A DNA stretch of 32,000 nucleotides from Mycolicibacterium smegmatis (GCF_001457595.1 NZ_LN831039.1:450001-482000); one strand, 5' to 3'. Counted from the stretch's first letter, positions 1-10,571 are shown. Notes: generated by a model not told the origin, from the sequence alone. A program made the numbers and translations.

Positions 1-690
1 CAGTTGGCCTTGAGCACCGTCGCCTGTCCGGACCCGTTCGCGATGACCTCGGCCAGCGCGTGCAACGCGGCCGAGGGATCCAACGGGATCAGACCTTGGG
101 CGGTGATGTTCGCGGTCGCGGCCTCCGACGACGCCATGCCGCCCTGACCCCACGGCCCGAAGTTGATGCCCGTGGCCACCAGACCCTGCGCGCGGCGCCT
201 GGCGACCAGACCGTCGAGCATCGCGTTGGCGGTCGCGTAGTTGGCCTGCCCCGGTGAACCGAACAGGCTCGACACCGACGAGGACACGATGAAGAAGTCC
301 AGGTCGTCGTCGCGCGTCAGGCGGTCCAGGTGGCTTGCGCCATAGGCCTTGGGCGCCAACGTGGTCCGGAAGCGCTCGGGGTTCTGCGCCGACAACAGCG
401 CGTCGTCGAGCACGCCCGCCAGATGGGCGATTCCGGCCAGCGGAGGCAACTCGGCCCGTATCCGCGCGAGCAGATCGGCCACCTGTGCCTCGTCACCCAC
501 ATCGGCCGCATAGGTGTGGATGCGGCACTTGTGGCGCTCGGTGATCTCGTCGATCGCCCGCCGGGCCGACTCGTCGGGCTCGCGCCGGCTGGTCAACACG
601 ATGTCGCCCGCGCCGAGCTGCGCCAGATACGCCGTCGTGTGCAGGCCGATCGCTCCGAGTCCGCCGGTGATCAGGTAGCTCCGATCGGGC
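1..690 (-). other. pks: PKS module 2 ketoreductase catalytic subdomain, B-type fingerprint (C-terminal edge at or beyond window start)
   Basis: [11 protein letters not shown] (about 645-672); AGVLDD with LDD at 402-410; [20 protein letters not shown] with the Tyr codon at 237-239, Pro at Tyr-5 and Asn at Tyr-1. Confidence 0.85.
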
Positions 691-3600
691 TGTGGCTGAA
701 GGGGTTTGGGGACCTGCAGCACGATCTTGCCGATGTGGCGCGCCTGCTGCATGCGCCGGAACGCCGACCGGGCCTCGGTGATCGGGTAGATCTCGGCGGG
801 CAGTGGTGTCCACTCGCCGCGCGCCATCCCGTCGGACACCTCGGTGAGCAATGCGCGGATGCGATCGGGTTCGGTGAACATCACGGTGTCCAGCGCGACG
901 ATCTCGTACGCGATGTCGGGGCGGGCCTCGGCCATCTGCTCATGCGACCAGATGTCACGCTTGGCGATCTCGGCGAAGCGGCCGCCCTGCGCGGTGGCCT
1001 TCAGCGTCGCCTCGATGAAACCCTCGCTCGTGAGGCTGTTGAGCACCACGTCCACGCCGGCACCGTTGGTGTCCGCGAGGATCTGATCGGCGAAGTCCGT
1101 CGTCCGCGAGTCGTAGACGTACTTCACGCCCAGCCTGCGCAGGGTCGAGCGCTTGAAGGTGCTCGCGGTGGCGAACACCTCGGCGCCGAACTGCTGCGCC
1201 ATCTGGATGGCCGCCAGGCCGACACCACCGCTGGCGGCGTGGATGAGCACCTTGTCTCCGGGCTTGAGCTGGGCCCAGTCGAACGCGAGCCGGACCGTCA
1301 GCGCCGCGGCCGGGATCGTCGCGGCCTCGACCGCGCCGATGCCGTCGGGAATCGGCGCCAGGAACTGGGCGGGCACGTTGAAGCGGCTCGCGAAGGCGCC
1401 CTGCATCGACCCGTACACGCGTTGGCCGATCTCGAGCCCGCTCACGCCGGCCCCCAATCGGGTCACGGTGCCTGCGAAGTCGCCGCCGATCGGTCCCGGA
1501 TCACCCGGGTACAGGCCGAGCACGTTGAGCACGTCGCGGAAGTTGAGGCCCGCGGCCTCGACCCGAACCTGCACGTAGCCCTCGTCCGGCTCCGGCACGT
1601 CCGTCTGCATGAGGCGCAGGTTGTCGATCGCGCCCCGCTCGGTGGGCGCGAGGACGAAGTCGCCCCCGCGCGGCAGCGTGAGATGACCGCTGCGGGCCCA
1701 CGGCAACAACCGTGATGCCAGCAGTTTGCCCTGCCGCACGGCGATTTCCGGTTCCTGGATGCCCGGTGCGGCCAGCAGAGCGGCCAGCAGGTCGACGGCC
1801 TCGGAAGATCCGTCACAGTCGACGAGCCGGCAGTGTAGCGCCGGTTCCTCGTTGATCGTCGTGCGGCCGAAGCCCCACAGCGCTGCCTGCACCGGGTCCA
1901 CCGGCTCGCCGGATTCACATGCCACGCCGTGTTCGGTGACGATCCAGAGTCCGCCGGGCAGTTTCACGCTGCCGCCCTGCGCGGCGTGCACTGCGCTGAG
2001 CAGATTGGTGATCTCGGCCTCCAGACGGGCGGATTCGGCGGAGGCAGAACCCGATTCCTTCCGGCCCGCCGTCGCGCACCGCCACACGACGCCCGAGAAT
2101 CCCGCGCCGCGCTCATGCGCCTGCGACAGCACCTCACCGAGGAGCTGCGGATCGGTGTTGCGGTCGACGGGGATGCAGCCGGGCACCTTCGCGGCCAGCT
2201 CGTCGAACCCGGCGATCAGCCACGTGCCGACCGCGTCGGCCGCCGATGGGGGCGGCGGCACCTCGTGCCACCCGAGCGTGTAGAGCAGGCGGGTCGCGTC
2301 ACCCCCGAGGCCGCGCAGCAGTGCCTCGCGCGGCGCACGTTTGACGGTGAACTCGCGGATGCCGCCGAGCGCGCGCCCACCGAGGTCGACGAATTCGAGG
2401 TCGAACACCTGCGTTTCGCTGTCGAGCGCGCTGCGGTGCCACCGTGCCCGGCAGTAGAACCGCCGCGGCATCTTCTCCGCGAGCGTCACCTGCCCGTAGC
2501 GCAGCGGCAGGAACAGGTCGTTGACGCCCTGTTCGGCCGCGAGCAGCGCCGGGAACGCCGGGAACGCGACACCCGTGCACAGGTCCATCAGCACCGGGTG
2601 CATGGGCTCGGAGCCGAGTTGCTCGGCGAGTTCGGCGCCGACGAGGATGTCGCCGACGGCCTCACCGTCACCGAGCCACAACGATTTCAGCGAACCCGAC
2701 CACGTCGGCCCCCACGCCAGTTCCAGATCGGCGAAGGTCTCGAACAGGTCCTGCGGGCGCATGCGCTCGAGACGCTCGATCACCTCGTCGACCGGATCCG
2801 ACTGCTCGCGTTCGGCGGCCTCTGTATCGGCGTCGGAGTCGATGCCGGCCGTGTCGACCGTGCCCTCGGCGTTCAGCGACCAGTCCGCACCACGCTCACC
2901 GTACGGGCGGCTGTGGATCTGGAAGCTGAGCACGCTGCCACCGTCGGCAGGGTGCAACGTCAGCTGGACCTCGCGAGAGGCCTTCTCGGGCAGGATGATC
3001 GGCTCGTAGAAGAACACGTCCTTCAGGCGTGCCGGTGTGCCGACCGCGGCGAGCGCCATCGCCGCATACGTCGCGCCGGGGACGACGACGGTGCCGTAGA
3101 TGACGTGATCGGCCAGCCACGGCTGCGATTTGACGGACAGCCGGCTCGTGTAGATGGTGTCGCCGGACGCCAGATCCTTGCCGCTGCCCAGGATTCCCGA
3201 CGCCGCGGTCCCACCGTCGACGGCGATGCTCGAGGCCTTCGGCCAGAACCTGCGGCGCTGGAACGGATAGGTGGGCAACTCGACCGGGCGGCGTGGCTGC
3301 CGGTGCACCGCGGCGAAGTCGGGGCGGTGGCCGCCGACGTAGGCCGACGCCAGCGCATCGGCGATCTGTCGGCGATCGGCGACGCCCTTGCGCAGCGAGG
3401 CGACGGCCCGCGGGGCAGCCATGTGTTCGGGCCACACCTGTACCGCGGCCCCGGTCAGCACCGGTTGCGGGCCGATCTCCATCAGCACCGAGCAGCCGAG
3501 CGCGGCGACGGTGCGCACACTCTCGGCGAACTGCACGGGCTGGCGGGAATGCCTGCGCCAGTACTGCGCGTCGAGCGGGGTCTGCCCGGTGAGCACGGCC

Positions 3601-9600: not shown

Positions 9601-10571
9601 GAGGTTCCGGTGCCGTGCGCCTCGAGATAACCGACATCGGCCGGTCGCAGGCCGGCGCGCTTCAACGCGTCGGCGATAACCCGTTGCTGAGCAACGCCGT
9701 TCGGCACGGTCAGCCCGCCCGACGCCCCGTCCTGGTTGATTGCGCTTCCGCGGATCACCGCGCGGATCCGGTCGCCGTCGCGCACCGCGTCCTCGAGGCG
9801 CTTGACCACGACGACACCGCAGCCCTCGCCGCGCACGTAGCCGTCGGCCGCCGCGTCGAAGGTCTTGCACCGGCCGTCCGGAGCCAGCATGTGCGCGTTG
9901 GAGAACGTGATCATGGTGGCCGGGGTGAGCAGGACGTTCGCCCCGCCGGCCAACGCGAGATCGCACTCGTTCAGGCGAAGTGCCTGACACGCCTGGTGAA
10001 TCGCCACCAGCGACGAACTGCACGCGGTGTCGACCGCCACCGCCGGTCCCTGCAATCCCAGGCGGTAACTGATCCGTCCGGCCGCAGCGGCATTGGAGGT
10101 TCCGATGGCCATGTAGGCCTCGATCTCGGGGTAGGTGAGTTCGTCGGAGGCCATACCGAGGTAGTCGTGGGTGGCCAGGCCGACGAAGACGCCCGTGTTG
10201 CTGTTGGCCAGCGACGTCGGCGCGATTCCCGAGTGTTCGACCGCGCGCCACGCGGTTTCCATGAGAATCCGGTGCTGCGGGTCCATCAGACGTACCTCGC
10301 GGGCGGACATACCGAAGAACGGCGCGTCGAAACCCGTTACGTCATCGACGAACCCCGCGCGGCGCGTGACGACCTTGCCCGGTGTCGACGGGTCCGGGTC
10401 GAAGAACTCCTCGATGTCCCAGCGGTCTTTCGGAACATCGGATATCGCTTCACGCCCGTCCCGCAACAACGCCCAGTATTCCTCGGCGCTCGCCGCGCCG
10501 GGAAAACGTGCGGCGTAGCCGATGATTGCGAAGCTCGGGGTCGGCTCGATCGGATGTTCGGCAGAGACCAT
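1..10571 (-). CDS. pks: Type I bimodular polyketide synthase, 3' end beyond window; domains seen: KS-AT-KR-ACP-KS-AT-DH-ER-KR
   Basis: None of the listed minus-strand ORFs between 1 and 10571 uses the frame with codon starts = 2 mod 3, which fits one open-ended ORF dropped by the track. My translation starts at ATG (rc of cat 10569-10571) with a GGGAGGA RBS 6 nt upstream. It reads [25 protein letters not shown]...[16 protein letters not shown], then [27 protein letters not shown], and a second set of domains. All motif codons checked fall in the same frame. Confidence 0.95.
712..1665 (-). other. pks: PKS module 2 enoylreductase domain (approximate bounds)
   Basis: [14 protein letters not shown]..., [18 protein letters not shown] (NADPH-binding motif, about 1215-1260), ending [10 protein letters not shown]. 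Confidence 0.85.
2330..3200 (-). other. pks: PKS module 2 dehydratase domain (approximate bounds)
   Basis: [17 protein letters not shown] matches HxxxGxxxxP, with the His codon at 3105-3107. It follows the post-AT motif YPFQRRRFW. Confidence 0.85.
3452..4282 (-). other. pks: PKS module 2 acyltransferase domain, malonyl-type fingerprint (approximate bounds)
   Basis: GHSVG with the Ser codon at 4002-4004; [12 protein letters not shown] with HAFH at 3699-3710. Confidence 0.88.
4628..5900 (-). other. pks: PKS module 2 ketosynthase domain (approximate bounds)
   Basis: [15 protein letters not shown]... [16 protein letters not shown] with the Cys codon at 5385-5387; ends ...[10 protein letters not shown] near 4630. 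Confidence 0.9.
5975..6190 (-). other. pks: PKS module 1 acyl carrier protein domain (approximate bounds)
   Basis: [19 protein letters not shown], with the phosphopantetheine Ser codon at 6081-6083. Confidence 0.88.
6400..7680 (-). other. pks: PKS module 1 ketoreductase (structural plus catalytic subdomains), A-type fingerprint; no DH lies between AT1 and KR1 (approximate bounds)
   Basis: After the post-[12 protein letters not shown] linker the sequence runs straight into YEIRWDAI...WLVTRDG...[10 protein letters not shown]. It continues with TGGLGAIG (about 6994-7020) and [18 protein letters not shown]. The Trp codon is at 6603-6605, eight residues before the catalytic Tyr at 6579-6581. HAAGEIG occupies the position where B-type KRs carry LDD. 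Confidence 0.8.
8108..8947 (-). other. pks: PKS module 1 acyltransferase domain, malonyl-type fingerprint (approximate bounds)
   Basis: [13 protein letters not shown] start; GHSVG with the Ser codon at 8658-8660; HAFH at 8355-8366 (malonyl-CoA signature, not YASH); ends [11 protein letters not shown]. Confidence 0.88.
9268..10535 (-). other. pks: PKS module 1 ketosynthase domain (approximate bounds)
   Basis: [13 protein letters not shown]... DTACSSS with the active Cys codon at 10020-10022, ending [16 protein letters not shown] near 9270. Confidence 0.9.

Follow-up and report, generated by a model that had tools for sequence, protein, structure and literature searches.

The trehalose polyphleate locus

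The window analysed here is a stretch of 32,000 nucleotides from Mycolicibacterium smegmatis (GCF_001457595.1, NZ_LN831039.1:450001-482000), with positions counted from its first letter. Its left end is occupied by a gene for a large type I polyketide synthase (PKS), which is read on the minus strand and runs off the window. Trehalose polyphleates (TPPs) occur in abundance as surface glycolipids in M. abscessus, M. smegmatis and many further non-tuberculous mycobacteria. The gene is very probably pks of the TPP locus, an orthologue of MSMEG_0408 and MAB_0939, and would encode a bimodular, probably iterative enzyme of 3654 amino acids (aa) that may employ double dehydration. The components of the locus are listed below, with the kind of evidence in brackets (ORF, open reading frame).

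1..10571, minus strand: putative pks gene of the TPP locus (reading frame, Pfam, motifs, gene calls)
10572..10813, no strand: divergent intergenic region between pks and papA3, 242 bp, the presumed promoter region (ORF positions)
10814..12235, plus strand: papA3-like acyltransferase, 473 aa, Condensation-domain fold, HxxxD motif in MDHVHGDA, proposed off-loading enzyme (family match)
12269..15277, plus strand: mmpL10-like MMPL/RND transporter, 1002 aa (family match, gene call)
15387..17096, plus strand: fadD23-like fatty-acid--AMP ligase, 569 aa, proposed to activate the starter (family match, NCBIfam)
17158..18309, plus strand: PE acyltransferase, 383 aa as called, the ORF reaching up to 17041 (NCBIfam, gene call)
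18314..18991, minus strand: gap-like integral membrane protein of the Sap/SfLAP family, 225 aa as called (family match, gene call)

The order of these genes equals the pks-papA3-mmpL10-fadD23-pe-gap-like order described for M. smegmatis, from which M. abscessus and M. chelonae differ by a swap of pe and fadD23 (PMC1885439). The PE-PPE-domain protein matched the NCBIfam equivalog 'acyltransferase PE' (NF041570) with 663 bits against a cut-off of 580, and the ligase matched the NCBIfam fatty-acid--AMP ligase model with 922 bits against a cut-off of 775. TPPs consist of trehalose bearing six or seven C36-C40 polyunsaturated phleic acids and one C14-C19 acid (PMC11633156). The genes papA3, pks, fadD23 and mmpL10 have been cited for TPP synthesis and transport (PMC5524727), and M. 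smegmatis mutants in pks (MSMEG_0408), mmpL10 and pE were devoid of TPP and could be complemented (PMC10465359). A preliminary description of the window, made from the sequence, had connected the PKS with phleic acids, and both the gene order and the published knock-outs bear this connection out; genetic evidence tying the locus to TPP has been published for M. smegmatis and M. abscessus. The assignment of the locus to TPP reportedly dates from Burbaud et al. 2016. The preliminary description is essentially correct but re-derives this assignment published in 2016; the TPP-locus identity of the Pks is on record, and the gene itself adds nothing new.

The pks frame is free of stops for 3523 codons (minus strand, 1-10571). 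It begins with an ATG at 10569-10571, with a Shine-Dalgarno-like GGGAGGA box 8 nt 5' of it, and is still open at base 1. At least 24 public contigs, all with the same gene order, encode an MmpL protein identical at every residue to that of the window; assembly GCA_024179085.1, for example, carries this MmpL. An independent gene call on contigs with this identical MmpL placed the pks start at the same position. Gene calls on these contigs give a full PKS of 3654 aa (3649 aa in one assembly), so that 131 residues lie outside the window, beyond the edge at base 1, and these fit a second acyl carrier protein (ACP2) only. Long ORFs of 703, 698, 461 and 390 aa on the plus strand beneath the PKS were rejected as genes, as none of them matched a Pfam family; in this DNA of 70% G+C they are shadow ORFs.

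Domain organization of the polyketide synthase

Pfam matches within the window were arranged as KS-AT-KR-ACP-KS-AT-DH-ER-KR (ketosynthase, acyltransferase, ketoreductase, acyl carrier protein, dehydratase, enoylreductase), the order that the preliminary description had given for its translation. There were two KS (E 1.9e-198), two AT (3e-115) and two KR (5e-116) domains, together with a single PP-binding domain (aa 1468-1533), one DH (PKS_DH_N at aa 2467-2555 and PS-DH at aa 2602-2752) and one ER (ADH_N and ADH_zinc_N, aa 2997-3285). The domains, all on the minus strand, are as follows.

9252..10535, minus strand: KS1, aa ~13-440; DTACSS 10014-10031, HGTGT 9603-9617, NIGH 9501-9512 (Pfam, motifs)
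7992..8945, minus strand: AT1, predicted malonyl type; GHSVG 8652-8666, HAFH 8355-8366, YAQPA 8736-8750 (motifs, structure matches)
6252..7745, minus strand: KR1 with its structural subdomain; motif 6993-7016, LDD 6726-6734, catalytic-Tyr motif YGAAN 6567-6581 (Pfam, motifs)
5973..6170, minus strand: ACP1; Ser in GMDSL 6078-6092 (Pfam, motifs)
4617..5900, minus strand: KS2; DTACSS 5379-5396, HGTGT 4968-4982, NIGH 4860-4871 (Pfam, motifs)
3330..4280, minus strand: AT2, predicted malonyl type; GHSVG 3996-4010, HAFH 3699-3710, FAQPA 4080-4094 (Pfam, motifs)
2286..3209, minus strand: DH, CurH-like; catalytic-His motif 3078-3107 and catalytic-Asp motif (Pfam, motifs, structure matches)
702..1649, minus strand: ER; NADPH-binding motif HAASGGVG 1218-1241 (Pfam, motifs)
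3..680, minus strand: KR2 catalytic subdomain; TGGLGAIG 645-668, LDD 402-410 (predicted B-type), YATAN 225-239; the window edge lies shortly past its end (Pfam, motifs)

The Cys/His/His triad is kept in KS1 and KS2, as are the NADPH motif and the catalytic Tyr in KR1 and KR2. An LDD motif in each KR marks both as predicted B-type domains. Only one DH His motif (3078-3107) and only one ER NADPH motif were present. In the 311 aa between AT1 and KR1 no Pfam match to a DH was obtained even at E<=10, and the stretch from AT1 to ACP1 aligned nearly end to end with KR-only structures, for example 4imp and DEBS KR1 (2fr0). A cryptic DH in module 1 was rejected on these two grounds. The preliminary description had treated a DH in module 1 as a finding that would refute its reading. 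None is there, and the argument is in any case backwards: a DH at that position would provide the canonical route to an olefin, and the true puzzle is why it is missing.

The KS-AT didomains of the two modules (7871-10532 and 3215-5894, minus strand) are 60% identical as protein and 69% identical as DNA, and KR1 and KR2 are 45% identical. The didomain identity points to a putative ancient internal duplication without recent gene conversion.

Acyltransferase specificity

In cis-AT domains, GHS[not Q]G together with HAFH, and with [YF]AQPA upstream, denotes malonyl specificity, and GHSQG together with YASH denotes methylmalonyl specificity. GHSVG, HAFH and [YF]AQPA were found in both ATs, with HAFH exactly at the positions given in the preliminary description (8355-8366 and 3699-3710). 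The closest solved AT is that of CurL (242.7 bits; the next match scored 186), and the methylmalonyl-specific AT of Mas was a much weaker match at about 116 bits. When the position of HAFH was read from the five best PDB alignments, the motif fell at the same aligned position in all five of these solved ATs. By these motifs both ATs are of the malonyl type, as had been proposed, in agreement with the unbranched nature of phleic acids.

Relatives of the synthase and its C-terminus

Related loci numbering 80 were drawn from a genome collection, and 61 of them carried a full-length PKS. Along their whole length these 61 orthologues share 75-80.5% identity with the window protein, a narrow band that holds in fast and slow growers alike, and they include proteins from Mycobacteroides chelonae (locus L027, 79%), M. 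septicum, M. peregrinum, M. triplex and M. genavense. The best species representative among the 80 loci is about 80% identical overall and 87% identical over the C-terminal 500 aa, so that the species of the window is not represented among these loci. In each full-length relative both ATs retain GHSVG and HAFH without variation, and the catalytic motifs of the DH are invariant in 61 of 62 sequences. A 666-aa query comprising KR1 retrieved from a protein database only fragments of at most 1159 aa, at most 79% identical and with generic names or none.

The lengths of the related synthases range from 3650 to 3820 aa, and MAB_0939 is reported as 3697 aa with KS, AT, KR, DH, ER and PP domains (PMC10465359). 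The window gene thus resembles the TPP-locus Pks (MSMEG_0408; MAB_0939, 3697 aa) in its neighbourhood, in the M. smegmatis gene order, in size class (3654 aa) and in the kinds of domain. Its 79% identity to the M. chelonae copy, upstream of which papA3 is found as well, equals the level published for M. smegmatis against M. chelonae and M. abscessus. No feature that would distinguish the window gene from the TPP-locus Pks was found.

Beyond the residues at which the window ends, the 61 full-length relatives continue with a linker of about 60 aa, a near-invariant ACP and a short tail, and no thioesterase or other release domain was found at the C-terminus of any of them. A divergent papA3 homologue together with exactly two KS regions within about 21 kb was present in 71 of the 80 loci, and no third KS occurred in any of these 71. 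A thioesterase or extra modules past the window were accordingly rejected, given the 3654-aa gene call and the 61-71 related loci. The full architecture is probably KS-AT-KR-ACP-KS-AT-DH-ER-KR-ACP, with nine domains in the window and ACP2 as a predicted tenth. The preliminary description had asked what the missing C-terminus holds and had named a methylmalonyl-type AT or further modules as findings that would overturn it; the relatives end in a second ACP without a release domain, every complete copy carries GHSVG and HAFH, and neither of the two named findings was encountered.

ACP2 and the roughly 25 residues in front of it hardly vary among the 61 species, though the proteins overall are only about 79% identical to that of the window. 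The tail past ACP2 is hypervariable, of low complexity and rich in Pro, Glu and Ala.

Probable iterative use of the two modules

Phleic acids have the formula CH3(CH2)14(CH=CH-CH2-CH2)nCOOH, with a C16 starter. A chain of C16 + 4n carbons reaches C36 at n = 5 and C40 at n = 6, which fits the C36-C40 phleic acids of TPP (PMC11633156). The locus offers only two modules and lacks both a release domain and a partner PKS. With a product of C36-C40, this strongly suggests that the growing chain passes both modules repeatedly, and that this iteration is needed to attain the observed length. Alternate iteration of the two modules had been anticipated in the preliminary description, and the two KS domains, the ACP end and the length of the product strongly favour it. 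The further remark that such enzymology is unusual is weakened by a precedent, as Pks12, the mycoketide synthase of M. tuberculosis, has two modules in one polypeptide that alternate about five times and give a 4-carbon periodicity (PMC2443190).

The likeness to Pks12 is confined to the repeated alternation of two modules in one protein and to the 4-carbon lipid periodicity. Both modules of Pks12 are fully reducing (DH-ER-KR), whereas module 1 of the window PKS has a KR and lacks DH and ER, and Pks12 alternates methylmalonyl and malonyl units, whereas both window ATs are of the predicted malonyl type. The C-terminus of Pks12 is extended by a helical linker of 81 aa and its N-terminus forms a coiled coil, both proposed to serve head-to-tail assembly (PMC2443190); the window PKS has about 12 aa before KS1 and the short, variable Pro/Glu/Ala-rich tail past ACP2. 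A Pks12-type synthase was rejected on account of the incompletely reducing module 1, the two malonyl-type ATs and the missing docking termini.

Mas, Pks2 and Pks3/4 share an accessory logic with the locus, namely loading by a fatty acyl-AMP ligase (FAAL), off-loading to a sugar or alcohol by a PapA protein and export by an MmpL protein. These synthases are iterative, methyl-branching, single-module, fully reducing and methylmalonyl-specific, in contrast to the bimodular window PKS with its malonyl-type ATs. Mas is also distant in sequence (DH about 32 bits against 152.7 for CurH; AT about 116 bits against 242.7 for CurL). A Mas-like methyl-branching PKS was rejected because of the two modules and the malonyl-type ATs.

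Olefin formation

Since module 1 is without a DH, its unit by colinearity would be CHOH-CH2 and not CH=CH. The preliminary description had obtained (CH=CH-CH2-CH2)n directly from the module logic; the periodicity is upheld, but the step that would turn CHOH-CH2 into an olefin had been passed over. No account of how phleic acid chains are assembled was found in the searchable literature, which did not reach the text of Burbaud et al. 2016. The remaining interest of the locus lies in this unexplained olefin-forming step and in the lead given by CurH, as a CurH-like DH provides a concrete hypothesis for the chemistry of the (CH=CH-CH2-CH2)n chain.

The best solved match of the DH is the DH of CurH (E 1.3e-43, 152.7 bits, residues 6-298 of 308 aligned), with which it has the motif HPVL(M/I)D.CT in common. 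Further matches in the PDB were CurJ (69 bits), CurK and CurF (about 49) and Mas and PpsC (about 30; Mas about 32). Matches of the ER did not discriminate (CurK 220 bits, Mas 209 bits). CurH and CurJ are thus the top two hits for a DH that follows a KR-only module, and a diene-forming activity is predicted. The DHs of CurH and CurJ are reported to carry out two successive eliminations on 3,5-diols to give dienes, the second step being vinylogous (PMC12828468; bioRxiv 10.64898/2026.09.17.752105). The curacin pair CurG/CurH (and CurI/CurJ) resembles the window PKS in that a DH-less KR module, which leaves its hydroxyl in place, is followed by a module with a CurH-like DH. It differs in that the curacin modules are separate cyanobacterial proteins used once, whereas the window modules are fused and would iterate. 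CurG and CurH together yield a CH=CH-CH2-CH2 unit in curacin A.

On this model, a FadD23-like ligase would load a long saturated starter (C16 in the phleic acid formula), and the two malonyl-CoA modules would alternate five or six times, for 10-12 extensions. The product of module 1 would keep its 3-hydroxyl, and extension and reduction by module 2 would then produce a 3,5-dihydroxyacyl-ACP2. The CurH-like DH would remove the beta-hydroxyl and subsequently, in a vinylogous manner, the delta-hydroxyl, leaving a 2,4-dienoyl-ACP2. With the ER acting on the alpha,beta bond only, a 4-enoyl chain would result and CH=CH-CH2-CH2 would be gained in each round; the species R-CH=CH-CH2-CH2-CO-S-ACP2 would be the phleate repeat with its delta-4 olefin. 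As both KRs are of the predicted B-type, E olefins throughout (all-E) are expected. The chain would go back from ACP2 to KS1 to begin another round, and once finished it would be passed by the PapA3-like acyltransferase from ACP2 to trehalose, an off-loading proposed in view of the lack of a thioesterase in the PKS. The general logic of mycobacterial PapA/FadD/MmpL loci suggests both the FAAL loading and the PapA3 off-loading, and the ACP2-to-KS1 route would be part of the same scheme.

Double dehydration by the module-2 DH, taken as a step by itself and by analogy with CurH, has about an even chance of being correct. The wider proposal, that the phleate pattern may arise from fused and iterating CurG/CurH logic with double dehydration, an ER confined to the alpha,beta bond and back-transfer without Pks12-style docking, is tentative and falls a little short of even. 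Several points weigh against the model. The DH may resemble CurH through common ancestry of the whole synthase and not through common chemistry, insofar as the AT is nearest to CurL and the ER to CurK, and to our knowledge no residue signature for vinylogous dehydration has been defined. The comparison presumes that CurG is KR only and that CurH includes an ER, a domain make-up that we take to be correct. No conserved N- or C-terminal docking elements that could explain transfer from ACP2 to KS1 were found in the window protein or its 61 relatives. ACP2 and the C-terminus are themselves placed outside the window, by the length of the gene calls and by the relatives. The orthology to MSMEG_0408 and MAB_0939 is suggested by synteny, the PE equivalog, size and the 79% identity to the M. 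chelonae locus.

Most of the probability left over from double dehydration goes to a variant of the same iterative enzyme, in which the module-2 DH dehydrates the 3-hydroxyacyl chain while it is on ACP1, the ER stays idle on the resulting 2-enoyl-ACP1, and the chain then passes to KS2. This would give the same regiochemistry, with a delta-4 olefin after extension, and it accords with the protein having a single DH, which lies outside module 1, and with the predicted B-type (LDD) of KR1, as KRs of this type usually occur together with a DH. However, the ER would have to tell enoyl-ACP1 from enoyl-ACP2 and the DH would have to serve two ACPs, and the nearest characterised relatives of this DH deal with a DH-less upstream module by vinylogous elimination on their own ACP. 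Cross-module action of this kind is therefore considered unlikely.

If the PKS instead made a poly-hydroxylated or saturated chain, double bonds could be introduced by a separate trans-acting dehydratase or desaturase encoded elsewhere. Module 1 without a DH would suit such a division of labour, and a 2OG-Fe(II) oxygenase and a flavin reductase are encoded just past the gap-like gene (19027-20551). The locus, however, encodes neither a desaturase nor a dehydratase of the hot-dog or MaoC kind, the TPP cluster as published is limited to five or six genes, and the regular 4-carbon spacing, which matches a two-module programme exactly, would be a coincidence for a desaturase; this explanation is highly improbable. 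Hardly any weight is given to a non-iterative enzyme that adds two C2 units to a long fatty acid and so furnishes a hydroxy fatty acid for another lipid, for example the tail of a glycopeptidolipid (GPL). In a 2007 annotation, pks, papA3 and fadD23 were indeed placed in GPL lipid synthesis (PMC1885439), but later genetics put these genes in TPP, and the PE equivalog is present in the locus.

Interrupted pks frames and the significance of TPP

The therapeutic phages BPs and Muddy depend on TPP for infection, and mutations in pks give rise to phage resistance (PMC10465359). TPP has also been linked to clumping, cording and virulence (PMC11633156, PMC5524727). In five of the related loci (L017, L022, L033, L058 and L073) the pks frame is interrupted while both KS regions are present, for example in M. 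wolinskyi ATCC 700010 (L017), where a 1992-aa ORF is found. These frames could be pseudogenes or assembly errors, and deserve attention since M. abscessus becomes phage-resistant when pks is lost.

Genes beyond the locus

The remaining features of the window lie past the gap-like gene and are listed below.

19027-20052, plus strand: 2OG-Fe(II) oxygenase (DIOX_N and 2OG-FeII_Oxy), directly past the gap-like gene
20066-20551, plus strand: flavin reductase
20835-24397, minus strand: succinate dehydrogenase/fumarate reductase-like operon, with an Fe-S subunit of 249 aa and a flavoprotein of 635 aa
25011-25778, plus strand: PEP mutase/isocitrate lyase-family gene, 255 aa, as called on contig L081, which carries the identical MmpL
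26960-28060, minus strand: EamA transporter
27540-29303, plus strand: GntR-aminotransferase (MocR-type) regulator, divergent from the EamA transporter

The oxygenase and flavin reductase genes follow the gap-like gene on all contigs with the identical MmpL. A further protein of the operon at 20835-24397, 273 aa long and unmatched in Pfam and NCBIfam, may be the membrane anchor. The EamA and MocR-type ORFs as listed overlap by about 500 bp, so the start of the regulator is probably further downstream.

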